This document shows, piece by piece, positions 5,774-45,391 of a stretch of DNA of 64,000 nucleotides; position 1 is the stretch's first letter, and each line of letters starts with the position of its first letter. Origin of the DNA: Bacilli bacterium (GTDB lineage Bacteria > Bacillota_I > Bacilli_A > RF39 > UBA660); assembly GCA_017484065.1 (NCBI GenBank), contig JAFUTX010000031.1, positions 98,581-162,580 of the forward strand, read 5' to 3'. Both the position numbers and the translations under genes were made by a program. The notes under the pieces were generated by a model. That model did not search any database, was not told the DNA's origin, and saw only the letters and a program-made list of their open reading frames with translations.

Positions 5774-6643
5774 ATGTCCAAAAAGAAATCTTTCTATACT
5801 TGTAAAGATGATAAAGTCTTTAAGACTATCTTTTGTAATTCTAATAATCCAGAACCAATGAAAGAATTATTAAGTCGTATATTAAAAGAAGAGATTAAAA
5901 CATTTGAGTTTCTAACTAATGAATTACCAGTTTCTTATGTATTGGAAAAATCTAAAAGAGTAGATTGCCTTATGTTAGTTAATAATAAGTATGTACACGT
6001 GGAATTAAATACTGAAACTGCAAAATTTATTAGAGTTAGAAATTATGCATCGTTTTCTTCGATATTTTCTAAAAATGTTATGGTCGGAGAAGAATATGAT
6101 GTAAATAAACAATTTATTCACATAGACATATCTTTTAACTTAAGTAAGAAAAAAGATTGTAAGATGAATAATACTGTTAATGATCATAAAGATGATTACA
6201 TAGAAAATTTACGATTAGTAGAATTTAATATGGACAAAATAATTGACTATTGGTATAATAATGATACAGAAATGATTAATAAGTATAAGCATTTAATCGT
6301 GTTGAATTTACCAAGAAAAGAATTAGAAAAAATAATTGAGAAAGAAGATGATGAATTTATGGTTTATGTTGGTAAGAGTATTTTAGAATTAAATGACCAA
6401 GAAAGATATGCTCCGTTAATAACTCCAGAAGAAGATTATATTTTAACTATGAATAGTTATAAACGTCTTGCTAGAGATGAGGGACTTGCAGAAGGTCGTG
6501 CTAAAGGCCTTGAAGAAGGACGCGCAGCTGAAAAGAATTCAATGGCACTTAATATGTTAAAAGAGAACTGTGATATAGCATTTATTACACGTATGACAAA
6601 ATTAAGTGAAAAAGAAGTTAAAGCTTTACAAACTACATTATAA
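5774..6643 (+). CDS. Rpn-family recombination-promoting nuclease / putative transposase (YhgA-like, PD-(D/E)XK)
   Basis: 289 aa; N-terminal nuclease-like region, C-terminal LAxxEGxAxGxxEGRAxE tail typical of Rpn/transposase_31 family. Confidence 0.65.
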   Translation: MSKKKSFYTCKDDKVFKTIFCNSNNPEPMKELLSRILKEEIKTFEFLTNELPVSYVLEKSKRVDCLMLVNNKYVHVELNTETAKFIRVRNYASFSSIFSKNVMVGEEYDVNKQFIHIDISFNLSKKKDCKMNNTVNDHKDDYIENLRLVEFNMDKIIDYWYNNDTEMINKYKHLIVLNLPRKELEKIIEKEDDEFMVYVGKSILELNDQERYAPLITPEEDYILTMNSYKRLARDEGLAEGRAKGLEEGRAAEKNSMALNMLKENCDIAFITRMTKLSEKEVKALQTTL

Positions 6644-6688
6644 AAAGCTGTTATGAAATTAACTATTTAATTTCTAGCAGCTTTTTTA
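6644..6688. terminator. bidirectional nested hairpin terminator between convergent genes
   Basis: AAAAAGCTG..GAAATTAA-CTAT-TTAATTTC..CAGCTTTTTT. Confidence 0.6.
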
Positions 6689-7612
6689 TTTATTGTATAA
6701 TCGATATAAATTAATACTTGAACGATTTAGAAATCTTATTTTAGTTGTTTTAGTACCAATACCATTATTTATATAAAGTTCAGTATCATTTACTTGGTAA
6801 TAATCACTTATGTAAGTTCTAGCACCTTTTATTTTTATTAATCCTTTAGTATATGGTAATCTTATTTGTCCACCAATAGAGTGTCCAGCTAAAATTAAAT
6901 TATAATTATTATCAGCTAATTCATTAATAGTATCAGGTTCATGAATGATACCAATTTTATAAGGTATACTTATATCATTATATAATGATGTATCATTAAT
7001 TTTATCCATATCTATTTTACTTGATATGCCAGTTAATAAAATAGGGGTATTACCATTGTTATAAAAGATTAATTCGTGTTCATTATCTAGTACTTTAAAA
7101 TTAGCATCTTCCATTATAGTAATATAGTTTTCTATTGATTCATAATCATCGTCACCAATAATAGCGTAAGATCCAATTGTAACGTTTATCTTTTTTAATT
7201 CCTTAATAATAGTTTTTACATCTTCTTCGTCGACATTACTAAATTTATCAAATAAATCACCATTATATATAACTATATCAGGTTCTAAATAGTTTATTTT
7301 TTTTACAACTCTTTTAATGGTATTAATATTAGTAGTAGATCCTAAATGAATGTCAGAAAATTGCACTATTTTTAAACCATTAAAATTTTGGGGGATATTG
7401 CTATTTATAATGGGATATTCATTAACCTTAATAAAATAACTTTCAAAGTACCTAGTGTAGCCATACATAATAAGTATTATTAATAAAATATATTTTATAG
7501 TTTTGAATATTTTTTTTCTTTTTGGATTTTCTTGTTTTTCTTCTTCGTCTTTTAAAGTTATTTCATCTTCAATAATATTATCTTCTTCTATAACTTCTTT
7601 ACTTCTTCTCAT
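6686..7612 (-). CDS. membrane-anchored metallophosphoesterase (calcineurin-like, YkuE-type)
   Basis: FSDIHLG, GDLFD, GHS/IIHEPD motifs; N-terminal TM; 308 aa. Confidence 0.8.
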   Translation of the reverse strand: MRRSKEVIEEDNIIEDEITLKDEEEKQENPKRKKIFKTIKYILLIILIMYGYTRYFESYFIKVNEYPIINSNIPQNFNGLKIVQFSDIHLGSTTNINTIKRVVKKINYLEPDIVIYNGDLFDKFSNVDEEDVKTIIKELKKINVTIGSYAIIGDDDYESIENYITIMEDANFKVLDNEHELIFYNNGNTPILLTGISSKIDMDKINDTSLYNDISIPYKIGIIHEPDTINELADNNYNLILAGHSIGGQIRLPYTKGLIKIKGARTYISDYYQVNDTELYINNGIGTKTTKIRFLNRSSINLYRLYNK

Positions 7613-8325
7613 ATAAATCTCTCCAAATACATTGCTAACATTACTAAGACTATAGTTAAACTATTATGAAATATATGTATTGTCATAGATGTATAAATAT
7701 TATCAGTTTCATAATAAGCTTTAGCAAAGTAATAACCAAGGCCACTATAAGAAACTATATATAATAATTCTATATAATTACCACTTTGTATAGAGGATAT
7801 CATATGTATAGATCCAAATATAAGTCCTGTAACTAAGCAAAATAGTTTTTTATTATTAAATATTTTTCTGAAGTTAGCTCTAAATACTAATTCTTCACAA
7901 ATTGGTCCAATTAACATAACTGATAGAATAGATGAAATAGGGCGAGCAGTAATCATTGCTCTATTAGCAGCTTCATTACTAGCTATATTACCAACTACTG
8001 TTAATATACAAGCATTACATATTATCATAAATAAAAATCCTTTACCCCAGTTTTTAAATACTGCTTTTATATTCGTTTTAAAATTTTTAAAAAACTTAGG
8101 TAAGGAAGTAGCAAGTTCTTCCCAAAATATTACTGAAAATACACACAATAATATTAAATATATTTCAAGCCTAGCTAAATCAGCAAGTATTGTATTAGAA
8201 CTATTATATGCCTTATAAAATAGAGGTACAATAAATGAGGGTAAAAATATATATAATAATATTAAAATAATTGCTAAAATAAACCTAAATATCTTTTTTT
8301 CTATAATATCTAACATGTTAATCAA
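7609..8325 (-). CDS. CPBP family intramembrane glutamic endopeptidase (CAAX protease/Abi-like)
   Basis: EELVFR and FGxxH motifs in polytopic membrane protein; 4-nt overlap with downstream gene. Confidence 0.75.
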   Translation of the reverse strand: MINMLDIIEKKIFRFILAIILILLYIFLPSFIVPLFYKAYNSSNTILADLARLEIYLILLCVFSVIFWEELATSLPKFFKNFKTNIKAVFKNWGKGFLFMIICNACILTVVGNIASNEAANRAMITARPISSILSVMLIGPICEELVFRANFRKIFNNKKLFCLVTGLIFGSIHMISSIQSGNYIELLYIVSYSGLGYYFAKAYYETDNIYTSMTIHIFHNSLTIVLVMLAMYLERFI

Positions 8326-8416: not shown

Positions 8417-9133
8417 TTGGTGTATACTATGAAAAAAACATTTAATTTAGTCTTAACGACTGTATTATTGGGAGTATTTTGCTGTTTACCTGTAAAAGCA
8501 GCGGAGTGTAGTAATGATCTTTATCAAGCTGCTGATAAAGTAAAAGTAAGTAATGAGTTTGTGGAGGAAATTGATAACGAAACAGATATTGTTTTATCAA
8601 ATGGTTCTAAACCTATGATGTTGGTTGATAATATTAAAATAGAAAATGTTACAAATCAAATGACAATTGTAGTTACTGAAACCAAAAACAATACTTCAAA
8701 CACTTATAATTATAGTAATTCAAATAATGGTACAATAACTATTAAAGACACAATAGTAAGAAAAGTTAAAAACTATACAATAGATATATATGCTTCAGAT
8801 AGTACAAATTGTGGTGGAACTAAATTAAAAGTTAAATATCTAGAAACACTAGCTTATAATCCTTATTCAAAATCTACTAGATGTGAAGGTAATGAAAAAT
8901 TTGAATATTGTAAAGAATATTTAAATAGAGAAATTACTGAAGAAGAATTTCAAAAGAAACTTAGTGAATATTTAGGAGAAGATGAGGGGGAAAATGATAA
9001 AGAAGGAATATTAGCGTTTATTAACAAACACAAAGTATTATTAATTATAATTATTTCGTTGTTGGTAATAGGGGGTACTACTACCATAATAATTCGAAGA
9101 AGAAAAGGAGTAGATAAAAATGAAAAGAAATAA
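8417..9133 (+). CDS. signal-peptide protein with C-terminal TM anchor and charged tail (type I membrane protein); real start probably MKKTFN at 8429
   Basis: N-terminal signal sequence, Asn/Thr-rich ectodomain, C-terminal hydrophobic stretch + RRRKG; overlaps next ORF start by 14 nt (coupled). Confidence 0.5.
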   Translation: MVYTMKKTFNLVLTTVLLGVFCCLPVKAAECSNDLYQAADKVKVSNEFVEEIDNETDIVLSNGSKPMMLVDNIKIENVTNQMTIVVTETKNNTSNTYNYSNSNNGTITIKDTIVRKVKNYTIDIYASDSTNCGGTKLKVKYLETLAYNPYSKSTRCEGNEKFEYCKEYLNREITEEEFQKKLSEYLGEDEGENDKEGILAFINKHKVLLIIIISLLVIGGTTTIIIRRRKGVDKNEKK

Positions 9134-12100
9134 TTTAAAAAGATTAGGTATTGGTTTATTAAGTACAATACTTTTTGCTAGTTTTACTGGCGATGTAAAA
9201 GCTGGTACATGTGCAGATTATTCTCAAAGTTTTACAGTCACTGAAACTGGTGGAGCAAGCGGAATCACATCTCAAAATACTTATCAATCAAATTCCAATG
9301 GAAAATATCAATATTGGAACTATAGTGTTAAGTACAATGGTGGGAGTGGAAGTATTTCAGGTGTAGGATTCTGTATTGACCCTGCTAAAAGTGGTTGGAG
9401 CGGAACAGGATACTGTACAAGAGAGGTTAATCCATATGATTCAAGTAATGGAGTTAATGTTCAAAGATTTGATAGAGCTTTAACTTATTTATATGATAAA
9501 TATGCATATAACATTACTTCTAATAGAGAATTAGGAGATTTAACAGTTAAATTAATAACTTATTATTATGGTTTAGGAGAAAGCAATAATTCTTCTAATA
9601 ATACTATTAATTGGGGACCTTATAAATTAAGACATGAAACATTCTTAAAATACAGAAATAATGTTGGATATTCTGCTACTGATAAGAATGCACCTTTGTA
9701 TGATACTGCTAATAGCAATTATACAAAAGCATTATCTTATGCTAAAGAATCTGTAGAATATGCAAATAATGATGCAAATTGGACTACTATATCAAGTGAA
9801 AATATTGCATATATAAAAGATAAAGGTATAACAGAAAAAAATGCTGCAAATGCAAGTCAAAAAAGTAGTGAAGACTTATACTGGGCATTTACTGACGCTA
9901 GTGGTAAAGAAATTAATGCAACAAAAGCTGGAAATGTGTATGATTTAGGTGGATATACTGGAGAGTTTACTGCAACTGCTTATTTAAGAATACCATTTGT
10001 TGAAAAGCTAGCTTCAAATTATGAAACTGCATTAACAGCAGCAAAAAATATGTTTAATTTTAAATGTGATAATTCAACATGTCAATTAAGTAATATTACA
10101 AGTGTTGGAAATAAAAAATATATACTTGTAGGTATTTCTGTTAAAGGTAATACATCAACTTATAATGGTGGTATTGGTTCATTTAATGATACTAACAACT
10201 CTGCTTCTATACAATCTAAAGGTAATATTGTAATATTAAATTCAAAAAATGTTGATACTGGAAATCAAGGTACAGGAATGCAACGTTATGTATTCTTCTT
10301 AAACAATGAAATTAAAAAGAATGCTGATGGTAATAAAATTGCTGATATAATATTACCAAAATTACAAAGTGGTTGTAGAAAAGATGAATCTACTGGATTA
10401 TGCTATGGTCCAGATGGAAAAACTATAAGTTGTAGTGAATATGAAAAATATTGTCCATCAACTTGCTATATAAAAGATGGTAAATATTATGTATCAAATG
10501 GTAAAGAAGTTACGGAAAGTGAATATTTAAAACAATGTCCTATGACTTGTAAAGTCGAAACTGACGTAACTACAGGTAGAAAAATATATCGTGGTCAAGA
10601 TGGTAAAATAGTTGATGAAGCTACTTATAATACTCAATGTAAAAATGATAATGGACCTCAATGTGAAGTAAAAAATGGTAAATATTACATTGATGGTAAA
10701 TCAGTTAGCAAGAAAAAATACGAAGATGAATGTCCTTGTAGTTCATACATAAGAGCAGTAGATGCTTGTTATGAACCTGGTGATGCAGATAGTAAGAATT
10801 ATGACACTATCGCTGCTAAAATTTATGGACCTAGAAATGTAAAACAATGTTTCTTCCCAGATGGTGTAGAATTAAGTGATGATTCTAATAAAAAGGATGA
10901 AGCAAAAAATACATATAAACTATCAAATACTGATGAAGCAGTAGGAGTATTAGAAAATAAATATTGTGCTGTTTACTGTAAAGAAGATTATGTATTTGAA
11001 TATCCAAATGTTAAATATGGTAACCAAGGTGAATATTTCAAATTAAAATTAAATATTACTGGCGAGAAAACATGCTACGAAAAAGTAGATGTTGATAAAT
11101 TTAATAGTGATGTTGCAACACAACAACAAAAAGTTGTAGATGCTTATAATAAGTATTCTGCATTCAAGAAAATTAGTGATGCTTATAGATCATCTAGCAA
11201 AAATAGTTGTGGAGGAGCTTCATTTACTACATATTTTGATACTTATAACGTTAGTGGTAATAGAACTAGTAATACTGCTACAGTTAAAGTAGGTAAAGAT
11301 GAAAGTGAATTATTTGGTTGTGTAAGCGTTGCTGATTATCCAGATAGTTATCAATTTGCTGATTCAAACTCATTAGATAGTAAATTAAAAGCTACTAAAG
11401 AAGAATTTGACACAGCTAAAAAAGAATTAGATAAGATGTTAGAAGACATTGAAGACTGTATTCCAGAATCTGCTAAATCAGGTGGATGGGATGATGGTAT
11501 CAATGATAAATATACTACTTGGTATGATCCTGAAGTAAGTTATACTTACGATACTGAATACAAAAATCAAAAGGATATTACTATAGCTAAAGATAAAAAC
11601 TTCTCTGAGAATATCGATGATGATCAAGAAGTATGGTCATGTAATGGCGAAAGTAATAATTCATTAACAAGTTGTAATGGTACAAAATCTGATAAATTTA
11701 CATTTGATAGAAATCGTACATTTATAAACTGTACTGATAACGGTTGTTCAACTACTAGAAAAGATGTCCCAACAACTAAATACTATAAAGTAATTAGTTC
11801 AGTAGATGCTGATTATACAAGTAAAACACTATATAAATCTAGATATCCTGATGGTAAAACAACAAATACTGATATTAAAAATGATTATGAAATTAAAGAT
11901 AATTATAAAAACTTAGTTAATGGTGTTCCAATTCATATTGAAGAAACTGATGGATTACATAAATATTCAATAAACATTGACAACTTAGGACGTTATTACG
12001 ATAAAGATAAAGGTGATTTAGGACGTTTAATTGGTGGAAGTAAGAGTGTTTATGATAAATTTGATTTAGATAGTGAATACGTATGTAGTTACGATGTTAA

Positions 12101-12992
12101 TGATTGTGAAGAATACATTAAGGATCCAAATACTGGTGAATATTGTTGTATAACTGAAGCTATAAAAGGTGCTGATGGCAAATATTACTGTAGTAATCCA
12201 CAAAAAGATACATGTAAACTTGTAGTAGATGATAGAGACAATATTTGTTGTGAAGACGAAGAAGTGCTTCAACCAGATGGTACTAAACAATGTAGTGAAT
12301 GTACTGAATATACTGATAAAAATAACAATACATGTTGTAAAGAAGATGCTAAAGAGGATGATAAAGGCGATTTAGTATGTTGCCCTGAATGTAAGGTTGT
12401 TTGTTTCTGTCCATATACTGAAAAAGATGGTAAGAAGTGTGAAAAAATCGATGATTACACATGTAAATTTAGTAAAGATGAAGACAAATGTAAAGATGGA
12501 GAATGTAAGGTTGAATGTATTGGCTCTAACTGTATTAAATTAGAAGAAGGAAATGTTAATGTAAGACAAATTTCTGAAACTAATATTAATGCTAATGAAA
12601 CATCTAAAGTAAGTAACTGGACTGAGAAGAATGAAAAAGTTGAACAAACAATTAATCAAATTCAAAGTTCAGCTAGTGAAAATAAAACTCCTGAATATAA
12701 ATTTGTTTTATCTCCAAAAGCTTTAAGCTCTATTAGAGAATCAAATAAATCTTCTTGGAATGCATTATATCAATCTAAAGAAAATAATTACTTAACTTGT
12801 GATTATATTGGTACAAATACTCAAAGAATTGCATGTAAGAGTAATTATCTAGATTGGTTAGTTAAAGAAGTATATAATGGAAGTTGTCCAACTGATGGTA
12901 GTGGAGATTGTAAATATGATTTCAACAATACTGATAACTTCACAACTTGGACAGGTGCTTTAACTAAGGGCGTAGGTCCTGCTTGGAAATAA
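9120..12992 (+). CDS. giant (1290 aa) secreted Cys/Lys/Asn-rich protein with internal CPxxC-GKYY repeats; no LPXTG or TM anchor
   Basis: signal peptide MKRNNLKRLGIGLLSTILFASFTGDVKA; dozens of Cys in CxxC/CC pairs; uninterrupted ORF; immediately precedes Tad-like locus. Confidence 0.6.
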   Translation: MKRNNLKRLGIGLLSTILFASFTGDVKAGTCADYSQSFTVTETGGASGITSQNTYQSNSNGKYQYWNYSVKYNGGSGSISGVGFCIDPAKSGWSGTGYCTREVNPYDSSNGVNVQRFDRALTYLYDKYAYNITSNRELGDLTVKLITYYYGLGESNNSSNNTINWGPYKLRHETFLKYRNNVGYSATDKNAPLYDTANSNYTKALSYAKESVEYANNDANWTTISSENIAYIKDKGITEKNAANASQKSSEDLYWAFTDASGKEINATKAGNVYDLGGYTGEFTATAYLRIPFVEKLASNYETALTAAKNMFNFKCDNSTCQLSNITSVGNKKYILVGISVKGNTSTYNGGIGSFNDTNNSASIQSKGNIVILNSKNVDTGNQGTGMQRYVFFLNNEIKKNADGNKIADIILPKLQSGCRKDESTGLCYGPDGKTISCSEYEKYCPSTCYIKDGKYYVSNGKEVTESEYLKQCPMTCKVETDVTTGRKIYRGQDGKIVDEATYNTQCKNDNGPQCEVKNGKYYIDGKSVSKKKYEDECPCSSYIRAVDACYEPGDADSKNYDTIAAKIYGPRNVKQCFFPDGVELSDDSNKKDEAKNTYKLSNTDEAVGVLENKYCAVYCKEDYVFEYPNVKYGNQGEYFKLKLNITGEKTCYEKVDVDKFNSDVATQQQKVVDAYNKYSAFKKISDAYRSSSKNSCGGASFTTYFDTYNVSGNRTSNTATVKVGKDESELFGCVSVADYPDSYQFADSNSLDSKLKATKEEFDTAKKELDKMLEDIEDCIPESAKSGGWDDGINDKYTTWYDPEVSYTYDTEYKNQKDITIAKDKNFSENIDDDQEVWSCNGESNNSLTSCNGTKSDKFTFDRNRTFINCTDNGCSTTRKDVPTTKYYKVISSVDADYTSKTLYKSRYPDGKTTNTDIKNDYEIKDNYKNLVNGVPIHIEETDGLHKYSINIDNLGRYYDKDKGDLGRLIGGSKSVYDKFDLDSEYVCSYDVNDCEEYIKDPNTGEYCCITEAIKGADGKYYCSNPQKDTCKLVVDDRDNICCEDEEVLQPDGTKQCSECTEYTDKNNNTCCKEDAKEDDKGDLVCCPECKVVCFCPYTEKDGKKCEKIDDYTCKFSKDEDKCKDGECKVECIGSNCIKLEEGNVNVRQISETNINANETSKVSNWTEKNEKVEQTINQIQSSASENKTPEYKFVLSPKALSSIRESNKSSWNALYQSKENNYLTCDYIGTNTQRIACKSNYLDWLVKEVYNGSCPTDGSGDCKYDFNNTDNFTTWTGALTKGVGPAWK

Positions 12993-13010
12993 TAGAAAGG
13001 GAAGTATAAT

Positions 13011-13421
13011 ATGAAGAGTTCATACTGGGGATATTTGTTAGTAATCTTAGGAATATTTGTAGTGGCTATACTTATGTTAACTCAAAGTGTAACCACTTCT
13101 AATACTCAAGATTATTACATAGTAAAGGAAGTAACAGAGGCGGCAATGGTTGATGCTATAGATTACGGTTATTATCGTGAATATGGCGAGCTAAAAATAA
13201 ATAAAGAAAAGTTTGTTGAAAACTTTTTGCGTAGATTTGCTGATTCTGTTGGTTTAAGTAAAACCTATACAGTTGAATTCTATGATTTATACGAAGCTCC
13301 ACCTAAAGTTAGTGTACAAGTAAGTAGTGATGCTGGATCATTTACTGTTGGTACTGATACAACAGAAAAAAGTGTTACTAACAGAATAGATGCTATCTTA
13401 GAAATTAGTGGGGAGGAATAA
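13011..13421 (+). CDS. small N-terminally membrane-anchored protein (possible pseudopilin/assembly factor)
   Basis: 136 aa, single N-terminal TM; position between giant protein and cpaB-like gene. Confidence 0.4.
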   Translation: MKSSYWGYLLVILGIFVVAILMLTQSVTTSNTQDYYIVKEVTEAAMVDAIDYGYYREYGELKINKEKFVENFLRRFADSVGLSKTYTVEFYDLYEAPPKVSVQVSSDAGSFTVGTDTTEKSVTNRIDAILEISGEE

Positions 13422-13423
13422 GA

Positions 13424-14209
13424 ATGGGTAATATAGTTGCATCTCTTAAGCGTTTACTAGCTAATAAGAATACTGTTACATTCTTAGGTGTAATAGCTGC
13501 AGTAATAGTATTATATGTTGGATATAGTATACGTGTTGGACAAGCAATTAAACAAATTCCTATTCCTTATGCTAAAAAAGAAATAGGAGCTATGACCGAA
13601 ATAACTGAAGATATGATAGGAACAGTAGATGTTCCTTCTACTTTGGTTAGTAAACATAATTTAATAAGTAGTAAACAACAACTAGTTGATATGTATGTTA
13701 CTAGTGGAACCTCTATTCCTGAAGGAGGATTTTTCCATAAGAATCAAGTAGTTCAAAAAGGTTCTTTACCAAATTCAGTTTTAGAAGATATACCTGATGG
13801 TTATACTATTTATAGTTTATCAGTTAATAATCATTCAACTTATGGTAATTCCATTTATCCTGGTGATTATATCGATTTATATTTTAAATCAACTGATGAT
13901 ACTGGTAGAGTACAATTTGGTAAATTTATTGAAAGTATTCAAGTATTAGCTGTTAGAGATAGTTCTGGTAGAGATGTATTTAGTCAAACTCAAGCTGGAG
14001 TTCCTGCTGAATTATTATTCTCTGTAACTGATGAGTATTTCCAATTATTACGTAAAGCTGATTATATTAGTGGTTATTCAATTGAAATTACTCCAGTACC
14101 AAGAAATAAATCTTATACTGCTAAAGAAGGAGATACTTCAATAGTAAGTAATGATATTAAACAATTTATTTTAGCAAAATCAAGTCAAATAGATAGTAAT
14201 TTAAATTAA
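13424..14209 (+). CDS. cpaB: Flp pilus assembly protein CpaB/RcpC-like (SAF domain)
   Basis: N-terminal TM then IPIPYAKKEIGAMTEITEDMIG..VDVP pattern typical of CpaB; 261 aa. Confidence 0.65.
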   Translation: MGNIVASLKRLLANKNTVTFLGVIAAVIVLYVGYSIRVGQAIKQIPIPYAKKEIGAMTEITEDMIGTVDVPSTLVSKHNLISSKQQLVDMYVTSGTSIPEGGFFHKNQVVQKGSLPNSVLEDIPDGYTIYSLSVNNHSTYGNSIYPGDYIDLYFKSTDDTGRVQFGKFIESIQVLAVRDSSGRDVFSQTQAGVPAELLFSVTDEYFQLLRKADYISGYSIEITPVPRNKSYTAKEGDTSIVSNDIKQFILAKSSQIDSNLN

Positions 14210-14231
14210 TAAATAATTTAAGAATAAGAAG

Positions 14232-15410
14232 GTGTTTAGAGTGAATGAAGCTATATTTTCACAAATAGACTTTGGACCTTTGAAAGAATTTCTTAATGAT
14301 GAAGCTATCACCGATATATCTTATAGTAATAATGGACAAATTCATTTAAAAACTTTGGATAAAGGTGTATATGCAGTTAAAAGACCTGAAATTAACAATG
14401 CATTAATGGAGAAATTAGCATTTCAATGTTCCAATGTTATGGGTAAAACATTTAATATGGCCCATCCTTTTTTGGATGCTGAAAGTGCCGAGCTACGTTT
14501 AAATTTTATTCATGATTCTATTGCAACTAATGGTATAGCTTGCGTTATTCGTAAAACACCTGCTAAAATAAGATTAAATAAAGAAAAATTAATAAATGAA
14601 GAATATGTAACAGAAGATGTGTTAAACTTTTTATTACAATGCGTTAAGGGGCATTGTAATATTATCGTTAGTGGAGAAACTGGTTCTGGTAAAACTGAAT
14701 TAGTTAAGTATTTAGCTAGTAACACTAACGAAAATGAAAAAATAATAACAATAGAGGATACTCTTGAATTACACTTAGATAGAATATTTCCACATCGTGA
14801 TATAGTAGCTATGAAAACTAATAATATAGCTAGTTATTCTGATGTACTTGTTACATGTATGAGACAAAACCCTATTTGGATATTACTTTCCGAAGTACGT
14901 AGTGCTGAAGCAGTTATGGCAGTTCGTAACTCTATATCTTCAGGACACAACATTTTATCAACCATCCATAGTGATAAAGCAAGTAATATACCAATGCGTA
15001 TGTATAGTTTGTTGGAAAGTAATATTGATACTGAACAATTTATAAGAACTATACATAGATATGTTCAAATAGGAATATATGTAAAAGGTTATATGTCAAC
15101 TAAATTAAATAGATTTCAAAGAGAGATTATTGAAGTATGTGAATTTTATGTTGATGAAAATAATGAAGCTAAAGTTAATACTATATTTAGTAAATCATTA
15201 GATGGAACTTTTTCTTTAAATAATCCTACTAAGCATTTAAGAGATTATGTTAGTATTCAAGGTGTAACTTTTGAAGAAGATTTATTCCATATAAATAATA
15301 AAGTAGGTAACATTCAAAATCCTAATGCTAATCAAGTAACTCCACCTGTTGTTAATACACAGAATATTAAAGCTGAAGATGTTAATCAAGCTTTAATTGA
15401 AATGCTATGA
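14232..15410 (+). CDS. tadA: Tad/Flp secretion ATPase CpaF/TadA (VirB11/FlaI superfamily)
   Basis: Walker A GETGSGKT, Walker B ILLSEVRSAEA, His box STIHSDKAS; 392 aa. Confidence 0.85.
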   Translation: MFRVNEAIFSQIDFGPLKEFLNDEAITDISYSNNGQIHLKTLDKGVYAVKRPEINNALMEKLAFQCSNVMGKTFNMAHPFLDAESAELRLNFIHDSIATNGIACVIRKTPAKIRLNKEKLINEEYVTEDVLNFLLQCVKGHCNIIVSGETGSGKTELVKYLASNTNENEKIITIEDTLELHLDRIFPHRDIVAMKTNNIASYSDVLVTCMRQNPIWILLSEVRSAEAVMAVRNSISSGHNILSTIHSDKASNIPMRMYSLLESNIDTEQFIRTIHRYVQIGIYVKGYMSTKLNRFQREIIEVCEFYVDENNEAKVNTIFSKSLDGTFSLNNPTKHLRDYVSIQGVTFEEDLFHINNKVGNIQNPNANQVTPPVVNTQNIKAEDVNQALIEML

Positions 15411-15423
15411 AAGGAGTGAATTT

Positions 15424-16317
15424 ATGGAACTTATATTATTACTCATCATAGCTTTAACTGTAGTAGGATACCGTAAAGGTGGTAAAGCTGGTGTATCTAA
15501 ATTTTTCACTGGCCAAGTTACATCTATTTATAATAAATATGTACCTTATAGTTATGAAGTTGTTAAAGCAAAAGTTAAAGAATTAGGACAAGATTATAGT
15601 GTAAAACAATATACTACACAAGTAATTATCTTTGCAGTAGGAGGATTTGGTATATCATTTTTATATTTCTATAATATAATGATATCAGCTATTTATGCTG
15701 TAATTGCTGTAATGTTTGTACCATATCTTGCATATCTTAGAAGTCAAAGATTATATAGTGAATACATATTTGAACAAATACAAATATATACTACTAATAC
15801 TATAATGGAATTTAATACTACACAAAGTTTTGTTAAATCATTAGAAGGTGTTAGAGATAGTGGTATATTAGAAGATCCGGTTTTGACAGATGTTAAAAGA
15901 ATGATTGATATGTCTTATCAAAATGGTGTTATAGATGAATCGATAGAGTATTTTAATGCTAAATATCCATATTATATGGTTAAGAATATGCATCAATTAT
16001 TCCTACAAATAACTAAAGAAGGTGCTAAAGATAGTGGCGATGCCTTAGAGAACATGTCAATGGATATTGACTCATTAGTTGAAGGTGTATATCGTGACCA
16101 AATGGATCGTAAAGAATTCCATAAAAAGTTCTTAACATTTGGTGTTATGTTATATTTCTTAGTTATGACAATGCAATTCTTATTAGGTAGAGATGAATAT
16201 AAGAAAATGTTAGATTTATGGTATGTTAATCTAATCTTACATGTAATTATAATCATTAATACTTACTTCTTAGTAAGTGGAGAAAAGTATTATAATGAAG
16301 ATGTGGGGGTAGAATAA
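15424..16317 (+). CDS. tadB: TadB-like polytopic membrane platform protein (T2SS-F fold); ORF track start 15397 likely upstream extension
   Basis: AGGAG RBS 7 nt before ATG 15424; TM-cytoplasmic domain-TM topology; position after ATPase. Confidence 0.55.
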   Translation: MELILLLIIALTVVGYRKGGKAGVSKFFTGQVTSIYNKYVPYSYEVVKAKVKELGQDYSVKQYTTQVIIFAVGGFGISFLYFYNIMISAIYAVIAVMFVPYLAYLRSQRLYSEYIFEQIQIYTTNTIMEFNTTQSFVKSLEGVRDSGILEDPVLTDVKRMIDMSYQNGVIDESIEYFNAKYPYYMVKNMHQLFLQITKEGAKDSGDALENMSMDIDSLVEGVYRDQMDRKEFHKKFLTFGVMLYFLVMTMQFLLGRDEYKKMLDLWYVNLILHVIIIINTYFLVSGEKYYNEDVGVE

Positions 16318-16318
16318 T

Positions 16319-17107
16319 ATGTATATAGAGATATTTATAATTGGTGGAATAATTCTATTTGTATTATTCTATACTGGTCAAATTAATAGAAATAAGTTCT
16401 TTAATGATAATCATGCTTATTTTTCTAAGCTTAAAGAAGAAGATTATGATTTCTTAGTAAAAGTTAAATATGGTGAAGGTGTTAATGCTGATATCTTATT
16501 TAATAAGAGAATTAAAAATGCAGTTATGGTAGGAGCAGTTGTTCTAATTGTTACCTTAGGTGAAGCTTCTTACCTAACAGTGTTATTATCTTTAGGAGTA
16601 GGAGTATTTATTTTTAAATCGGGTTATTCTAGTTTAAAAAGATACTATAAAGCTCATTTAAATCAAGTTAATACAATGTTACCTTATTATTTAAAAAGCT
16701 TAGAGATTCTTATTCAACACTATACTGTACCAGTAGCTATTGGTAAGAGTTTAAATGATGCTCCAGGTATATTTAAAGATGGTTTACAAGAGCTCGTAAA
16801 TGCAATTAATGCTGGTGATGATTCAATTCAACCGTATATGGATTTTGCCAAGAAATATCCAGTAAGAGATTCAATGCGTATGATGCGTTTATTATATCGT
16901 TTAAGTTTAGGTAAACAAGAGAGAAAACAAGAACAATTAGTTACATTCTCTCATTCAATATCTAACTTACAACAAAAAGCAAGAGAATCTAAATATAAAG
17001 CCCGTCTTGATAAGATGGAAGGTAAAACAATGAAAATGCTTATGGTAACAGGAGCAGGAGTAATGGGTTTACTACTTTTATCTGTATTTATGTTAATGGG
17101 AATGTAA
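16319..17107 (+). CDS. tadC: TadC-like membrane platform protein
   Basis: 262 aa, N-terminal TM, helical cytoplasmic domain, C-terminal TMs; pairs with TadB-like. Confidence 0.5.
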   Translation: MYIEIFIIGGIILFVLFYTGQINRNKFFNDNHAYFSKLKEEDYDFLVKVKYGEGVNADILFNKRIKNAVMVGAVVLIVTLGEASYLTVLLSLGVGVFIFKSGYSSLKRYYKAHLNQVNTMLPYYLKSLEILIQHYTVPVAIGKSLNDAPGIFKDGLQELVNAINAGDDSIQPYMDFAKKYPVRDSMRMMRLLYRLSLGKQERKQEQLVTFSHSISNLQQKARESKYKARLDKMEGKTMKMLMVTGAGVMGLLLLSVFMLMGM

Positions 17108-17186
17108 AGTATAATTAAAATATTGATAATTATTAAAAAAAAAGTTATAATATAAATAGTTAAACTAAAGGAGGAATTAATAATTT

Positions 17187-17396
17187 ATGAAAGAAGCAAC
17201 AGGAGAACTAAATATGACAGTTATTGTTGTTATAGCATTAGCAGCTATTTCAGCATTATTTGTAACATTTATTATGCCAATGATACAAAATAGTATTACT
17301 ACTAATTCATGCCATTCTTCAGGATATAATACAAAAGATGTCAATGGTAAATTAGAATGTGACTATAGTAGTACATATACTGCTCCATCAAATTAA
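17187..17396 (+). CDS. Flp/Tad-type prepilin-like protein 1 (69 aa, leader MKEATGELN, 2 Cys)
   Basis: short charged leader ending in G, followed by hydrophobic helix TVIVVIALAAISALFVTFI; RBS AGGAGG upstream. Confidence 0.5.
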   Translation: MKEATGELNMTVIVVIALAAISALFVTFIMPMIQNSITTNSCHSSGYNTKDVNGKLECDYSSTYTAPSN

Positions 17397-17407
17397 GGTG
17401 ATATAAT

Positions 17408-17629
17408 ATGAAAGAGGCAACGGGAGAACTTAATTCAACAGTTATTGTTGTTATAATAGTAGGGCTTGTTATTGCCTTTTTCTTTTCTGTTGTATGGCCA
17501 ATGATTGATAGAGATGTTAGCGATACTGCAGATTGTAGTAAAGCAGTATGTGGGACAGATGTTGGTGATGACGGAAAAGTTGATTGCAAAAACGGAAACA
17601 AAACTATAAGATGTCCTTATAAGGGGTAG
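17408..17629 (+). CDS. Flp/Tad-type prepilin-like protein 2 (73 aa, identical leader, 4 Cys)
   Basis: MKEATGELNSTVIVVIIVGLVIAFFF; paralog of previous. Confidence 0.5.
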   Translation: MKEATGELNSTVIVVIIVGLVIAFFFSVVWPMIDRDVSDTADCSKAVCGTDVGDDGKVDCKNGNKTIRCPYKG

Positions 17630-17639
17630 GTGGTCATAA

Positions 17640-18056
17640 TTGAAAGAATCAATTGAAGGGACTACTTTATTAACAATTGTTATGGTATTTTTATTTGTAT
17701 TCACAGCAGTTATATGTGTATCTTTAAACTATTCAAATGCCTTTAAAACTAAAAATGATTTGATTAAGTATATAGAAAGACATGGTATAGAAGCTGCTAA
17801 AGATGCGGAATATATAGAAAATCTTAAACAAAATGGTTATACTGCAACTGGAACATGTCCTAATGAAGAGGGTTTTACACCGGTTGGCGATGATGACGGA
17901 ACTTTGTTTTGTTATAAAGAAAATAAAAGTAACAGTTCAGCAGAATTAAGTAATAGCAAATATTATGATATTGTTGTTTTTTATAAAATTGATGTACCAT
18001 TGGTTAATAAAATATCTTTTCAAGTTCGTGGTAGTACAAAAAGTATTTATAATTAG
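17640..18056 (+). CDS. TadE-like pseudopilin (TTG start), ATGTCP motif, 2 Cys
   Basis: N-terminal TM LLTIVMVFLFVFTAVICV then globular domain; RBS AAGGGGTAGGTGG. Confidence 0.45.
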   Translation: MKESIEGTTLLTIVMVFLFVFTAVICVSLNYSNAFKTKNDLIKYIERHGIEAAKDAEYIENLKQNGYTATGTCPNEEGFTPVGDDDGTLFCYKENKSNSSAELSNSKYYDIVVFYKIDVPLVNKISFQVRGSTKSIYN

Positions 18057-18071
18057 AAATGCGGTGATATA

Positions 18072-18650
18072 ATGAGAGAAAGTATGGGTTCGACTTGGAT
18101 AATGAGTTTAATGATTAGCTTTATCTTTATATTCACTGCTTTTTTAATACTTGCAATGAATTTTACTAAAGTTTATAAGATGAAAAATGAAGTAACTACT
18201 ATTTTAGAAAAATACGAAGGTGTAACAAGGAGTTCTAAAGGAGAAAAAAGCAATGGCTGGGGGTCTATATCACTAGTTAAAAATTATTTATCAGCTAGTG
18301 GTTATTCAGCAACTGGTAATTGTCCAGTAGATACTGAATCTGATCCTAAAGGTGAGAGATTAGGTTTGTGGTATGGAGCTACCGATTTAGTTGCTAATAA
18401 TGGAGTTTTAAAAAAAGTAAGTGATTCTAATGAAAAGTTTTATTTTTGTGTTAGAGCTAATAATATTGACAATTCCAAAATGACTTATTTTGATATAAGG
18501 TTATTTTTAAAATTTAATTTACCTGTAATTGGAAATATTACTGCTTTTAGAATTAATGGAAGTACCATAGATATAAAAAATGCCTATTGTAACGGATTTG
18601 AAAGTGGATATAGTACTGGTAAATGTATAGCTACTAAAGTAACTACTTAA
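18072..18650 (+). CDS. TadE/TadG-like pseudopilin paralog, ATGNCP motif, 5 Cys
   Basis: N-terminal TM IMSLMISFIFIFTAFLILA; shares GYxATGxCP motif with previous ORF. Confidence 0.45.
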   Translation: MRESMGSTWIMSLMISFIFIFTAFLILAMNFTKVYKMKNEVTTILEKYEGVTRSSKGEKSNGWGSISLVKNYLSASGYSATGNCPVDTESDPKGERLGLWYGATDLVANNGVLKKVSDSNEKFYFCVRANNIDNSKMTYFDIRLFLKFNLPVIGNITAFRINGSTIDIKNAYCNGFESGYSTGKCIATKVTT

Positions 18651-18681
18651 ATTTTGATTAACAGGAAGAAAAGAGGATAAT

Positions 18682-19695
18682 ATGAATATACTAGTAACAA
18701 ATAAACATAGTATGGAATTAACTAATCTGAATATTGATACTATTCAAGCTATTAATGGTGAATTTAGTATAGATGATTTAGTTAATCAATTTAGTAATTT
18801 TGTATTTAATAAAATGATTATTGATATAACTGCAATAAAAGATTATCAAAATATTAATACTATTCAACAATTATCAACTAAGTTTGATATGAGTAGGGTA
18901 ATATTATTATTAGACGATAGTATTACATCAGATATTTATTTATCAGAGTTAGTAGCATTCGGTATATATAATTTTACTAAAGATATAAATCAAATTAATT
19001 ATTTAATTGAACATACTAATTCTTATGATGAAGTTAAACAGTATCATAAGCAAGATATAGTAACTAGTAATAATGTTGAAAATAGAGAAAATGTTAATAA
19101 CTCACCAGTTACTAACACTGTAAGTGAAGGTTTAAAAATACTAGGTGTAAAAAATGTAACTCCTCATGCTGGAGCTACTACACTGGTATACATGTTAAAG
19201 AAACAATTAGAAGCATATTATAAAGTAGTAGCAGTAGAAGTTGACAATAAGGATTTTCTATATTTAAATGATCCTACTTTAAAGAATACAACTTCTCTAG
19301 ATTTACCAGCATTTATTGCTACAAACAGAGATGTAGAAGTAATATTAGTTGATTTAAATGATAAAGCATCTACAAATTCTTGTACTGATGTAATATATTT
19401 AATTGAACCAGGACTAATTAAACTAAATAAGTTAATTGGTAAAGATAAAAACGCTTTTGAAAGAATTAAAAATAATAAGCTAGTTCTAAATAAAAGTGTA
19501 TTAACTGATGCTGATAAATACGATTTTGAATATGAAAGTAAAACTAAAATATTCTATAATATTCCATATTTAGATGATAAAAAGAGTTATCATCCAGAAT
19601 TAGATGAATTTTTAGCTAATTTAGGCTTTAGTAAAATAAAACAAGGTGAAAAAAAGAAAAAAGGGTCATTCTTTGATCTATTTAAAAAATCTTGA
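18682..19695 (+). CDS. TadZ/CpaE-like protein: receiver-like N-domain + ParA/MinD-like domain with degenerate Walker A
   Basis: N-terminal REC-like fold pattern; GVKNVTPHAGATT in place of GGVGKTT; 337 aa. Confidence 0.45.
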   Translation: MNILVTNKHSMELTNLNIDTIQAINGEFSIDDLVNQFSNFVFNKMIIDITAIKDYQNINTIQQLSTKFDMSRVILLLDDSITSDIYLSELVAFGIYNFTKDINQINYLIEHTNSYDEVKQYHKQDIVTSNNVENRENVNNSPVTNTVSEGLKILGVKNVTPHAGATTLVYMLKKQLEAYYKVVAVEVDNKDFLYLNDPTLKNTTSLDLPAFIATNRDVEVILVDLNDKASTNSCTDVIYLIEPGLIKLNKLIGKDKNAFERIKNNKLVLNKSVLTDADKYDFEYESKTKIFYNIPYLDDKKSYHPELDEFLANLGFSKIKQGEKKKKGSFFDLFKKS

Positions 19696-19748
19696 CATAG
19701 ATATTAATGTTTAATATAATTAAAGAGTAAAGAAAGAGGTGTTTATTA

Positions 19749-20096
19749 ATGACTGAAACAGCTGAATTATGTAATAATGCCGCTCCATTTTTGAAAATTA
19801 TAGGTGTTGTATTATTAGTTGTAAAAATTGCAGTACCTATTATTCTTTTATTAACAGGTGCTATAGCTTATGGATCAGCAGTTATCTCAAACGATGAAAA
19901 AGCAATGAAAGGTGCTACTAGTAAATTAATTAGTAAAATTATTGCAGCAATAGTAATATTCTTATTACCTTATTTATTAAATACACTATTTAATTTAATT
20001 GATGATTATGCTCAATTAGGTAAAAGTTATAAGGCTTGCTGGAATTGTGTATTAAAACCTGACACTTGCCCAAAAACTGAAACTGTAAGTAACTAA
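19749..20096 (+). CDS. small 2-TM protein with C-terminal Cys motif (paralog 1 of 3)
   Basis: 115 aa; shared IxFxLP(T/Y) TM2 motif; tail CWNCVLKPDTCP. Confidence 0.4.
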   Translation: MTETAELCNNAAPFLKIIGVVLLVVKIAVPIILLLTGAIAYGSAVISNDEKAMKGATSKLISKIIAAIVIFLLPYLLNTLFNLIDDYAQLGKSYKACWNCVLKPDTCPKTETVSN

Positions 20097-20204
20097 AAGG
20101 AATAATTAGAATATGTCTATAAATAGACATGTTTTTTTATTTATTATCTTATTGCTAAGAAACTAATGCTTATGTTATAATAATCATGAAAGTAAGTGAT
20201 TTAA

Positions 20205-20636
20205 ATGTTAATTCTTGCCGAATTTTGTGAAGGTGGAGTTCTAAAAGTATTTAGAGCTACTGGTTATATATTATTAATTATAAAAATTATAATACCAATT
20301 GTATTATTAGTTATGGGTATAGTCGATTTATTTCAGGCTATATTTGGCACAGATCCTAAGGCATTAAATACATCAATTCATGCATTTATTCAAAGAATAA
20401 TTGCGGGAGTTATAGTATTTTTTGTTCCAACATTTCTTCATATAGTATTATGGTTATTAAGTGAAGCAGGAACTGCCGATGGCAATAAATTTGTTGGAGA
20501 AAATTTTCCTGTATGTAATGAATGTTTATATCGTCCAAGTGGTACAGATTGTAATAGTCATGTTGACAGCACTAAAGACTGGATGGAAAATGTTGAAGAT
20601 AAGATTGATGAATTAGATAAAAAAGCTGGTGATTAA
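20205..20636 (+). CDS. small 2-TM protein with C-terminal Cys motif (paralog 2)
   Basis: 143 aa; tail CNECLYRPSGTDCNSH. Confidence 0.4.
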   Translation: MLILAEFCEGGVLKVFRATGYILLIIKIIIPIVLLVMGIVDLFQAIFGTDPKALNTSIHAFIQRIIAGVIVFFVPTFLHIVLWLLSEAGTADGNKFVGENFPVCNECLYRPSGTDCNSHVDSTKDWMENVEDKIDELDKKAGD

Positions 20637-21017
20637 ATGAAAAAAAATAAATTAGAAATAATCATTATTATAATATTAACTTTTTTTGTTGGATTTTTTA
20701 TTAATCCAACAAATACATTAGCTGCGCAATGTGTTGATATTATAGGTAATCCTGAATCAGAGGGGACATTTGGTTATTATTTACAATTAATATTTAATAT
20801 TATGAAATATGCTGCTATTATATTATTTGCTGTTTTTTCGGTTAAAGATTTCTTTACTGCAATAATTAACCAAGATCAAAAAGGAGTAAAAAAAGCGTTT
20901 CCAGTTTTTACTAAAAGAGCAGTTTCAGTAGTTATCATATTTTTGCTACCAACTATAGTAAAATTTGTTATTTCAATCTTTGGAAAATTACAAGATCCAA
21001 CTTGTAATATATTCTAG
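20637..21017 (+). CDS. small signal-peptide 2-TM protein (paralog 3)
   Basis: 126 aa; N-terminal signal peptide ending AAQC; tail DPTCNIF. Confidence 0.4.
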   Translation: MKKNKLEIIIIIILTFFVGFFINPTNTLAAQCVDIIGNPESEGTFGYYLQLIFNIMKYAAIILFAVFSVKDFFTAIINQDQKGVKKAFPVFTKRAVSVVIIFLLPTIVKFVISIFGKLQDPTCNIF

Positions 21018-42714: not shown

Positions 42715-42790
42715 GCCCGATTAGCTCAGTCGGTAGAGCGCACGGCTGTTAACCGGTAGGTCGTAGGTTCGAGTCCTACATCGGGCGCCA
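42715..42790 (+). tRNA. tRNA-Asn (anticodon GTT), CCA encoded
   Basis: cloverleaf: acceptor GCCCGAT/ATCGGGC, T-arm GTAGG-TTCGAGT-CCTAC, loop CTGTTAA; anticodon stem has two mismatches at its outer end as read. Confidence 0.7.
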
Positions 42791-45210: not shown

Positions 45211-45226
45211 TTTTGAATTTTGTTAT

Positions 45227-45303
<77 letters not shown>

Positions 45304-45306
45304 TTT

Positions 45307-45383: not shown

Positions 45384-45391
45384 TTTTTTTT

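Follow-up and report, generated by a model that had tools for sequence, protein, structure and literature searches.

The 64,000-nucleotide stretch of Bacilli DNA analyzed here (the window) carries, between positions 8417 and 21017, a cluster of 15 open-reading frames (ORFs), A to O, all on the plus strand and separated by tiny gaps or overlapping, at a GC content of ~ 25% in the window (Table 1). An earlier note on this DNA had read the block as a Tad/Flp-like locus joined to a membrane-anchored protein and a giant Cys-rich secreted protein. Its co-directional layout was confirmed, and its gene list held as described except that a gene for a DUF5411 protein, C, had been overlooked, while the Tad/Flp label proved apt for a CpaB homolog and a T2SSE-type ATPase but not for the Tad/Flp family proper. 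Relatives of the ATPase, E, were sought in one genome per species, of which at least 458 were confirmed, and counts out of 80 loci refer to the best 80 of these, 74–84% identical to E. Using tblastn and blastp, the whole cassette was found again in 80 of 80 loci from related genomes and, where metagenome loci had upstream sequence that sufficed for judging, in 43 of 47, so the ORFs are taken as real genes and not as chance.

Table 1 Genes of the cluster, parts of the giant B and other features; positions are those of the window unless a related locus is named
Feature	Position	Strand	Description
A	8417..9133	+	Type I membrane protein; probable start 8429
B	9120..12992	+	Secreted giant, 1290 aa
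B residues ~30-400	9207..10319	+	Hypervariable N-terminal domain, candidate thioester domain
B Cys85 codon	9372-9374		
B Gln388 codon	10281-10283		
B residues 419-550	10374..10769	+	Cys-rich repeat linker, C..DGK..C.EYEK.CP..C pattern
B residues 551-988	10770..12083	+	Family-conserved core: beta-sheets and long helical hairpin
B residues 989-1290	12084..12989	+	Second Cys-rich knot (989-1138) and conserved C-terminal domain ending GPxWK
C	13011..13421	+	DUF5411 protein; pLS20 p36 homolog
D	13424..14209	+	CpaB/RcpC-like; N-terminal transmembrane segment
E	14232..15410	+	Hexameric-type secretion ATPase, Firmicutes 'CpaF/VirB11' clade
F	15397..16317	+	Polytopic membrane protein; position equivalent to pLS20 p38
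G	16319..17107	+	Second polytopic membrane protein; pLS20 p39 homolog
H	17187..17396	+	Pilin-like, 69 aa
I	17408..17629	+	H paralog, 73 aa
J	17640..18056	+	Pilin-like, 138 aa, leader MKESIEG
K	18072..18650	+	J paralog, 192 aa
L	18682..19695	+	Cytoplasmic, 337 aa, degenerate P-loop-like motif
M	19749..20096	+	Two-transmembrane VirB2-like (T4SS_pilin family); conserved Cys
N	20205..20636	+	Two-transmembrane VirB2-like paralog
O	20637..21017	+	VirB2-like paralog with its own signal peptide
Promoter-like site TTGATA-17-TATAAT	17123..17151	+	G-H gap, ahead of H-L; consensus match only
Promoter-like site TTGACA-17-TATAAT	19692..19720	+	L-M gap, ahead of M; perfect consensus, 12/12
Metallophosphoesterase, membrane-anchored	6686..7612	-	Pfam Metallophos 5.5e-8; system membership uncertain
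CPBP/CAAX (Rce1-like) intramembrane protease	7609..8325	-	Pfam Rce1-like 4e-15
DUF5411 fusions	L081 6585-8033; L006 2564-4249; L060 7940-9088; L036 8326-9132		Peptidase_M15, Big_2+SH3_3+Peptidase_M15 or Peptidase_C39_2
Tandem giant genes	L064 144-3515 and 4355-7966; L077 80-3784 and 5038-8736		
VirD4-bearing loci	L100 11081-16422; L073 34-3201; L003, L037, L121, L135, L136, L159		

The first gene, A, encodes a signal peptide, an ectodomain of ~ 170 aa with four conserved Cys, a C-terminal transmembrane (TM) segment and a basic tail, and its start is probably the ATG at 8429, since Met5 is conserved among homologs. No Pfam or NCBIfam family matched A, and no homology was found to the proteins upstream of plasmid adhesins. 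A and B overlap by 14 nt, as the note had it, the ribosome-binding site of B (AAGGAG) falls within the 3′ end of A, and the two genes are translationally coupled. The description of B as a secreted Cys-rich giant was also upheld, with a Sec-type signal peptide, 55 Cys, no LPXTG motif and no hydrophobic segment past the signal peptide. The giant was co-localized with the ATPase gene in 72 of the 80 loci, where it lay between A and the machine genes, the first of which is C, and ranged from 418 to 1528 aa (median 1171), while A was present in 67–69 loci at ~ 31% identity, always immediately 5′ of the giant and overlapping it. The physical tie of the anchored protein and the giant to the machine was thus borne out, and the finding that the note had said would speak against it, a giant that never co-localizes with these genes in related genomes, is clearly contradicted. 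The profile searches and neighborhood survey that it had proposed were both run, the survey giving this co-occurrence and the searches the family reassignments described below.

With B as the query, a word-indexed search returned no matches, and an exhaustive protein search yielded a family of 284 representatives at 50% identity; among the 150 matches listed, nearly all were 900–1400 aa long, ~ 27 were shorter, and none was closer than ~ 36% across the conserved part. Conservation is limited to residues ~ 550–1000 and 1150–1290, with invariant Cys at C989, C1044, C1091, C1124, and C1138, and residues 1–500 are hypervariable. The linker (419–550) was modelled as small beta/alpha units, the core (551–988) confidently, and the C-terminal region (989–1290) at low confidence, and no known fold matched the body after the N-terminal domain. 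The core is proposed as the docking part of the protein.

In family alignments of B, Cys85 (FC85ID) is invariant and Gln388 is conserved in at least 90% of members, within the motifs FCIDPAKSG (family YC[ILM]DP) and MQRYVF (family QR[YFLM][VILM]), and the strict thioester Cys motif [YFL]C-phi-[DNE] was present in 88 of 127 family representatives. The B-family hidden Markov model (HMM) puts its Cys column onto the Cys of Tie, the adhesin of the conjugative plasmid pLS20, and the Cys and Gln contexts are the same in form as those of Tie Cys68 (VYCIDPDKP) and Gln256 (SYQRLMS) (PMC8092201), at a spacing of 303 residues in B compared to 188 in Tie. Pfam TED left the window's B unmatched and matched 2 of 43 relatives (best 7.6e-5), and outside the thioester region the body of B showed no homology to plasmid adhesins. 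These motifs indicate that B is probably a thioester adhesin, with its N-terminal domain as the candidate thioester domain.

C matched Pfam DUF5411 (PF17424) at 190.2 bits (cut-off 30, E 2e-56) over profile positions 1–132 of 134; its short leader (MKxxxWG) is followed by a hydrophobic helix near the N-terminus and by an ectodomain of ~ 110 aa. It exceeds 200 aa in 20 of 78 relatives. Among five long copies scanned with Pfam, three carried Peptidase_M15, Big_2+SH3_3+M15 or Peptidase_C39_2 and two had no recognized extra domain, and the copy of loci L081 and L082 is likewise fused to a peptidase domain of those types. Since these domains are peptidoglycan-active, their fusion to C in relatives places C outside the membrane, at the wall. 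For D, TIGR03177 (7e-10) and Pfam RcpC (2e-6) were each sub-threshold, and comparison at the level of families identifies it as the CpaB homolog that had been proposed, with the D family HMM matching the annotated CpaB of pXO1 at 1.6e-34 and hhalign against a CpaB set giving 98.8% (E 1e-16).

E, described before as a VirB11/CpaF ATPase, matched Pfam T2SSE at 100.6 bits (cut-off 24.9) and has the Walker A sequence GETGSGKT, which identifies it as an intact ATPase of the T2SSE superfamily. Within that superfamily, the NCBIfam models for VirB11, TadA, TrbB, and FlaI scored close together and all far below their cut-offs, with TIGR02788 VirB11 at the top (9e-30, 103.7 against a cut-off of 250) and TadA at 94.5 against 373, and among solved structures in the PDB, CpaF was the best match (8e-17), followed by FlaI and then VirB11. 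In a neighbor-joining tree, a rough distance tree that does not settle the mutual order of the deep CpaF, VirB11, and TrbB branches, E fell outside all three and formed a clade with pLS20 p37 and the pXO2 ATPase (95% bootstrap), so that the superfamily assignment stands, with E placed by this tree in neither of the two named families.

F is made up of an N-terminal TM segment, a conserved cytoplasmic domain of ~ 130 aa, and two C-terminal TM segments, and G is polytopic with a conserved cytoplasmic middle as in F. A common origin of the two as paralogs was rejected (hhalign 0.8%), and they match TadB and TadC, the names they were first given, in topology and position alone. The F family comprises more than 8000 database clusters, every one of them named hypothetical. 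Compared to its pXO1 and pLS20 equivalents, F gave weak scores (2.6e-5 and 1.6e-3 in a small database; hhalign 13–20%), while G matched the plasmid p39 family at 96.5% in hhalign (E 9e-10), and its family HMM found the positional equivalents in five of five plasmids. Among ten plasmid F and G equivalents searched with Pfam, the sole trace of T2SSF was in pXO1 F (E 0.015), and the plasmid p39 family, used as a database query, gave 25 matches without any Pfam domain, one of them with a UniRef name, 'GspF domain', that Pfam did not reproduce. F and G are putative platform subunits.

The next four products, H to K, share with C a leader of the form M[KR]E[AST]xxG followed by a hydrophobic helix. 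In H, this leader (MKEATG-ELN) is near-invariant across relatives, and the helix is followed by a Cys-containing tail. The view of H and I as Flp prepilins and of J and K as TadE-like pseudopilins was not sustained, as Flp_Fap matched 0 of 37 H/I members and TadE 0 of 42 J/K members of a 79-sequence set, and the start of H/I, MKEATG-ELNMTV, lacks the Flp G/XXXXEY motif, with no Glu-Tyr at +5/+6. J and K weakly resembled the plasmid DUF4320 proteins, p40 in pLS20 (HMM ~ 2e-3 in a small database; hhalign 28%). H, together with I, is a candidate major filament subunit and J a candidate minor subunit. The motif KNVTxHAGATTL of L is invariant in its alignment and degenerate P-loop-like, as noted before, but L had no Pfam, NCBIfam or PDB matches, and its identification as TadZ gained no support from hhalign against TadZ/CpaE-like proteins, which reached 6.5%, in the P-loop-like region only. 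Apart from the cluster, the window contains two classical type IV pilin/pseudopilin genes at 3270-3695 and 3696-4124 (plus strand), with a KGFTLVE N-terminus and both above the Pfam N_methyl cut-off, which implies a PilD/ComC-type peptidase elsewhere in the genome.

The last three products, M to O, had been listed as unknown 2-TM proteins. They are 2-TM proteins, but they are not without relatives: PF18895 (T4SS_pilin) gave E-values of 0.002 for M, 0.0025 for N and 0.033 for O, all below the 26.6-bit cut-off, and across the M–O family 46 of 55 members matched it at E ≤ 0.01 (best 7e-6) and 2 matched CagC. Alignment to five plasmid TrbC/VirB2 proteins gave 1% in hhalign. We regard M, N, and O as VirB2-like on the strength of these profile matches. 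A single 2-TM gene of this type is kept even in the short variant of the cluster.

Given that the order of CpaB, ATPase, two membrane proteins, and small then larger pilin-like genes mimics the Tad loci of Curtobacterium and Rhizobium, that CpaF is the best solved relative of E, and that Tad systems have been detected computationally in Bacilli and Clostridia (PMC6668835), the cluster might be taken for an ordinary, diverged monoderm Tad/Flp pilus, such as those of Bifidobacterium breve and Micrococcus, with A and B as mere neighbors without a mechanistic link. We consider this the least probable of the readings, and a distant prospect, because the T2SSF, Flp, TadE, and TadZ families all fail, H and I lack the Flp motif, E and its plasmid relatives form a clade apart from CpaF, and VirB2-like genes are foreign to Tad systems; the linkage of A to B is moreover universal and translationally coupled, and an adhesin occupies the same place in plasmid modules.

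The best 80 carriers are uncultured gut genomes labelled 'Bacilli', 'Tenericutes', 'Mycoplasma sp. CAG:776', 'Clostridium sp. CAG:609' and Candidatus Onthocola or Ventrenecus, a group that we take to be the GTDB order RF39; Ca. Onthocola is placed in Bacilli incertae sedis by the NCBI taxonomy. The host is, then, an RF39-like, uncultured gut member of the Bacilli instead of the thick-walled Firmicute first supposed, and an origin in Clostridium, which the GC content of 25% might suggest, was rejected. RF39 genomes mostly retain the genes for peptidoglycan synthesis (PMC7301438). No relative of E above 84% identity was present among the species representatives, and the window's giant, or anything more than ~ 40% identical to it, was absent from two large protein libraries; it seems that these collections have not sampled the source species.

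Median identity across the 80 loci was 82% for E, 69% for F, 63% for G, 57% for C, 52% for L, 47% for D, ~ 46% for H and I, 31–36% for J, K, M, and N, 31% for A, and 26% for B. This fall from the cytoplasm to the surface is the pattern expected of a conserved motor with exposed, diversifying parts. The cluster is built of three separable blocks, A–G, H–L, and M–O. Many genomes have a short form with A-B-C-D-E-F-G and one 2-TM gene, others have the long form seen in the window, and several loci have unrelated YfhO and GDPD genes inserted between G and H. H lies beside the machine in 44–45 of 80 loci and elsewhere in other genomes, and the H–L block stands by itself in four metagenome loci. A scan for promoters and terminators gave matches that were not enriched over shuffles, among which two strong intergenic promoter-like sites, in the G–H and L–M gaps, stand out and fit the three blocks. 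Copy number also varies, with tandem giant genes in two loci, tandem CpaB-like genes in 22 of 78, and one to four VirB2-like genes per locus, some of them fused to larger proteins.

A search of 72,556 plasmids with E gave its best matches in Firmicutes conjugative plasmids (E 1e-30 to 1e-39, 150–170 bits), namely pLS20 ('tadA', gene 37), pXO2, pXO1, and E. faecium, P. bifermentans, and Peribacillus plasmids, with proteobacterial CpaF and VirB11 well behind. A common gene order was found in five plasmids (pLS20, P. bifermentans, E. faecium, pXO2, and Peribacillus): a large secreted thioester/isopeptide adhesin is followed by small genes, a ~ 125-aa protein, the ATPase, two membrane proteins of ~ 250–280 aa, a 120-aa DUF4320 protein, hydrophobic proteins of 47–80 aa, a protein of the TrbC/VirB2 family (so annotated in three of them; in pLS20 and the P. 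bifermentans plasmid its place is taken by a 2-TM protein without a name), further genes, and VirD4. C aligned to the plasmid p36 family at 81% in hhalign (E 1e-5). Judged by these comparisons, homology to the plasmid module is strong for E, good for G and C, weak for F and for J/K, and without support for H/I, M–O, and the adhesin body, which points to the pLS20/pXO2-type module (pLS20 genes 34–45: Tie, p36, 'VirB11' p37, p38, p39, p40, p41, p45) as the closest relative of the cluster. A related locus on pXO1 of B. anthracis (L089 1130-2000 and 6974-12708) has DUF5411-like and DUF4320 genes, CpaB, an AAA ATPase and CpaF/VirB11, followed by the membrane protein with the faint T2SSF match (E 0.015) and three 67-aa pilin-like genes of identical type, and it bridges the plasmid and chromosomal forms.

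The pLS20 literature gives p36 and p38–p47 as 'unknown' and calls p37 a 'putative VirB11', a rarity among Gram-positive systems (PMC8557374), so the machine is something that we infer for both systems. Tie itself is secreted, has no anchor, is sortase-independent, and is genetically required for liquid mating; its C68S mutant is non-functional, and how it stays on the cell is explicitly an open question (PMC8092201). Tie is reported to act in the donor, with ectopic expression restoring mating in donors and not in recipients (PMC8092201). The statement that neither a tip adhesin nor an export substrate of this kind had been characterized in Firmicutes therefore needs qualifying, given the genetic requirement for Tie. 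No link to a pilus or to Tad is made in a review from 2022 on conjugation in the B. cereus group, and we found no open-access paper that describes the system in RF39 or ties the plasmid module to a filament machine.

The earlier note had also held that a conjugative VirB11/TraG context for the ATPase and membrane genes would count against its reading, and half of this was found: the nearest homologs of the ATPase, G, and the DUF5411 protein, and more weakly of F, lie in conjugation operons beside VirD4/TraG-type coupling proteins. Together with the VirB2-like M, N, and O and the first place of VirB11 for E in NCBIfam, this brings in an apparatus for DNA or protein transfer, either a reduced or atypical type IV secretion system (T4SS) or the domesticated remnant of an integrative and conjugative element, in which a VirB11/VirB2/VirD4-type channel would transfer or take up macromolecules and B would be just a contact adhesin. 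In a sub-lineage, 8 of 160 related chromosomal loci, three more genes are indeed attached directly to the cassette, for a membrane protein of 795 aa, a lipoprotein of 229 aa and a coupling protein of the VirD4 type (Pfam T4SS-DNA_transf 2e-54); in these loci, housekeeping genes come after VirD4 and the VirB2-like genes are lacking. The C-terminal end of the 795-aa protein looked NlpC/P60-like by eye. In the window, the cassette ORFs matched no VirB4/CagE/AAA_10, VirB6 or relaxase profile and tblastn with three plasmid VirD4 proteins gave nothing, and VirD4 was not found in the other 152 of the 160 loci (tblastn with plasmid VirD4 and four further plasmid transfer-region genes; VirB4, VirB6, and relaxase were not searched there). 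The flanks are housekeeping genes that differ between genomes, E remains ~ 80% identical over hundreds of species, unlike a decaying mobile-element remnant, and CpaB and the pilin-like genes are features of a filament. A transfer apparatus is, on this balance, unlikely, and we rank it third among the readings.

A filament or stalk machine that carries an adhesin fits best, given the constant motor, the diverging exposed parts, the constant handle and variable head of B, and the anchored partner A. Our best reading of the cluster is, therefore, an envelope machine of the type-IV-filament kind, encoded on the chromosome and passed on vertically, that presents the anchorless, probable thioester adhesin B, with the chances for and against this model as a whole evenly balanced, and the pilus tip adhesin proposed by the earlier note remains the favored role of the giant. 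In this model, the ATPase E would drive the platform F/G to polymerize the pilin-like H and I, minor or priming subunits would be provided by J and K and perhaps by C, and the leader shared by H, I, J, K, and C would probably be cut by a peptidase encoded elsewhere. The resulting short pilus or stalk would traverse a ring of CpaB (D) and an opening in the wall that the hydrolase function linked to DUF5411 would maintain. B, once Sec-exported, would be held by A and then loaded onto the tip or the stalk of the filament, to which its conserved core and C-terminal domain would attach it. The variable thioester domain would thus be exposed and could form a covalent bond with a ligand on other cells, on food particles or on the mucus of the host. 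In mating-pair formation, the plasmid version would have the same task.

The second role that had been proposed for B, that of a dedicated export substrate, would involve the same machine. A short pseudopilus, as in a wall-crossing type II secretion system (T2SS)-like route, would push the A-held, Sec-exported B through the peptidoglycan and release it. B is very large, Sec-dependent and anchorless and is encoded together with the machine throughout the relatives' loci, the wall hydrolase fusions on C suggest that wall passage has been solved by the system, and related DUF5411 operons were placed among secretion-related ones by Miller et al. 2022. Release, however, would require neither a conserved C-terminal two-thirds that co-occurs with a conserved machine nor variation in the N-terminus alone, a thioester adhesin is useful to the cell only if attached, and Tie is reported to function in the donor cell (PMC8092201). 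We rank this route below the tip adhesin and regard it as improbable.

Several results weigh against the filament model. F and G had no Pfam T2SSF match, PDB profile searches with them were empty for both RF39-only and mixed alignments, and hhalign against Rhizobium and Curtobacterium TadB/TadC gave 1.4% and 9%, so the earlier assignment of the pair to TadB and TadC is not supported. H–K and C were unmatched by the N_methyl profile and motif, and no subunit belongs to a recognized pilin family. An A24 prepilin peptidase was found neither in the locus, as stated before, nor in the 64-kb window (motif scan and Pfam of membrane proteins). For the thioester fold, an AlphaFold2 model of the N-terminal domain, of mediocre quality (pLDDT 66.6), gave nothing below E 0.08 when compared to the PDB by Foldseek. 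A transfer channel would account for the VirB2-like genes, and for VirD4 in some relatives, no less well than an adhesion pilus would. In the model, the roles given to A, L, and M–O are guesses, and the filament and its contact with B are predictions.

A further possibility, which we put forward tentatively and with less confidence than the filament model, although above the rivals, is that the cluster belongs to a new class of Firmicutes machine, in which a type-IV-filament-like motor, platform, and CpaB ring are combined with VirB2-like subunits and an optional VirD4 to hold and extend anchorless thioester adhesins. If true, the cluster would be a core, lineage-wide attachment organ of RF39-like gut bacteria, and its counterpart on pLS20/pXO2-type plasmids would supply the 'mating pilus' that has long been missing from Gram-positive conjugation and would explain the retention of Tie on the donor surface. 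RF39-like Bacilli are widespread, uncultured, reduced-genome inhabitants of the human and animal gut, and a conserved surface organ with a fast-diversifying, probably covalent adhesin would be central to their attachment to the host or to partner cells. The homology to pLS20/pXO2 turns the display of Tie and the role of p36–p45 and the odd 'VirB11' into a hypothesis testable in B. subtilis, and the mix of Tad-like and T4SS-like parts bears on the exchange of components between two families of envelope machines.

Two conserved neighboring genes lie divergently upstream of A. The metallophosphoesterase gene is divergent and upstream of A in 30 of 53 related loci and the CPBP/CAAX protease gene is upstream of A in 17 of 53; both adjoin a separate H–L block in loci L096-L098 (~ 6770-8300), and on the E. 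faecium conjugative plasmid (L086 2593-3036) a CPBP protease gene is located two genes 5′ of the adhesin. That the CPBP/CAAX protease is a candidate leader peptidase for the cluster is pure speculation. Farther out, the cluster is flanked by housekeeping genes, among them the gene for the Der GTPase on the upstream side and, downstream, a wall-polymer cluster and the gene for a TagA/WecG glycosyltransferase, and a prophage or plasmid location was rejected in view of the flanking Der, TagA, and tRNAs. Between der and the cluster, at 5774-6643 (plus strand), is a gene for an Rpn-family recombination-promoting nuclease/putative transposase (TIGR01784 4e-12, below cut-off), which just 3 related loci have at this site. 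The downstream cluster is a long co-directional one from 21109 to ~ 40500 (plus strand) that starts with TagA/WecG and a GT4 glycosyltransferase and contains an SH3_3 protein at 25092-26405 and further ORFs that by eye resemble large polytopic proteins and an ABC transporter pair; the products of this locus probably make wall teichoic acid or a polysaccharide. A tRNA-Asn is at 42715-42790 and a Ser-Met-Asp-Phe tRNA cluster at 45118-45467 (both plus strand), and an 87-aa 'ORF' at 45138-45401 was rejected as a gene, being an artefact that overlies the tRNA cluster.

When compared to known systems, the cluster shares with Tad/Flp (type IVc) pili, including the monoderm and the pXO1 Tad-like ones, a CpaB homolog, an ATPase with CpaF as its best solved relative, two medium-sized polytopic proteins after the ATPase, and clusters of small proteins with a leader and a hydrophobic helix. 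It likewise has no secretin, either at the locus, as the earlier note had it, or in the 64-kb window (motif scan and Pfam of membrane proteins), and no peptidase in the locus. The absence of a secretin and a peptidase encoded elsewhere are usual in monoderm Tad systems such as that of B. breve. Unlike these systems, it fails four of seven Tad tests (T2SSF, Flp, TadE, CpaE/TadZ), lacks the G/XXXXEY motif, has an ATPase outside the CpaF clade, and includes VirB2-like genes and an obligatory adhesin pair. From conjugative T4SSs it differs in failing the VirB4, VirD4, and relaxase tests. The PilY1/PilC tip adhesins of type IVa pili are large, Sec-exported, anchorless proteins, not pilins themselves, whose variable N-terminal domain does the binding and whose conserved C-terminal part docks on minor pilins at the pilus tip; the variable N-terminus and conserved C-terminal part of B resemble these as a functional analogy only. 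With the TIE adhesins of Gram-positives, B has in common the N-terminal [YFL]C-phi-[DNE] Cys, the partner Gln, and the nature of a secreted surface adhesin (PMC8092201), while it has no LPXTG/sortase signal (which pLS20 Tie also lacks), no CnaB stalk, and no match to Pfam TED.

Closer to the whole cluster is the operon of DUF5411, CpaF, and PilC/GspF that Miller et al. 2022 (Nat Commun, PMC9523054) described in Roseburia, Ruminococcus, and Eubacterium and predicted to be secretion- or pilus-related. Like the window, it brings DUF5411 together with an ATPase of the CpaF type, a membrane platform protein, and a big surface protein, of the 'cell-invasion' type, in gut Firmicutes; by its description it differs in genera, in having a recognizable PilC/GspF, and in a big protein that is internalin-like compared to the thioester, Cys-rich B. 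The pLS20 module, also of the pXO2/pAW63 type and in E. faecium and P. bifermentans, has, like the window, an anchorless adhesin followed by a DUF5411-like protein, the ATPase, and two polytopic proteins. In contrast to this module, the window's cluster is chromosomal and lineage-wide, is not followed by VirD4, VirB6 or VirB4, adds the CpaB gene, L, the anchored partner A, and several VirB2-like copies, and has an adhesin whose body is Cys-rich and conserved where that of the Tie type consists of CnaB-type domains. The best place for the cluster is beside the adhesin/'VirB11' module of pLS20/pXO2-type plasmids, and near the DUF5411 operons of Miller et al.

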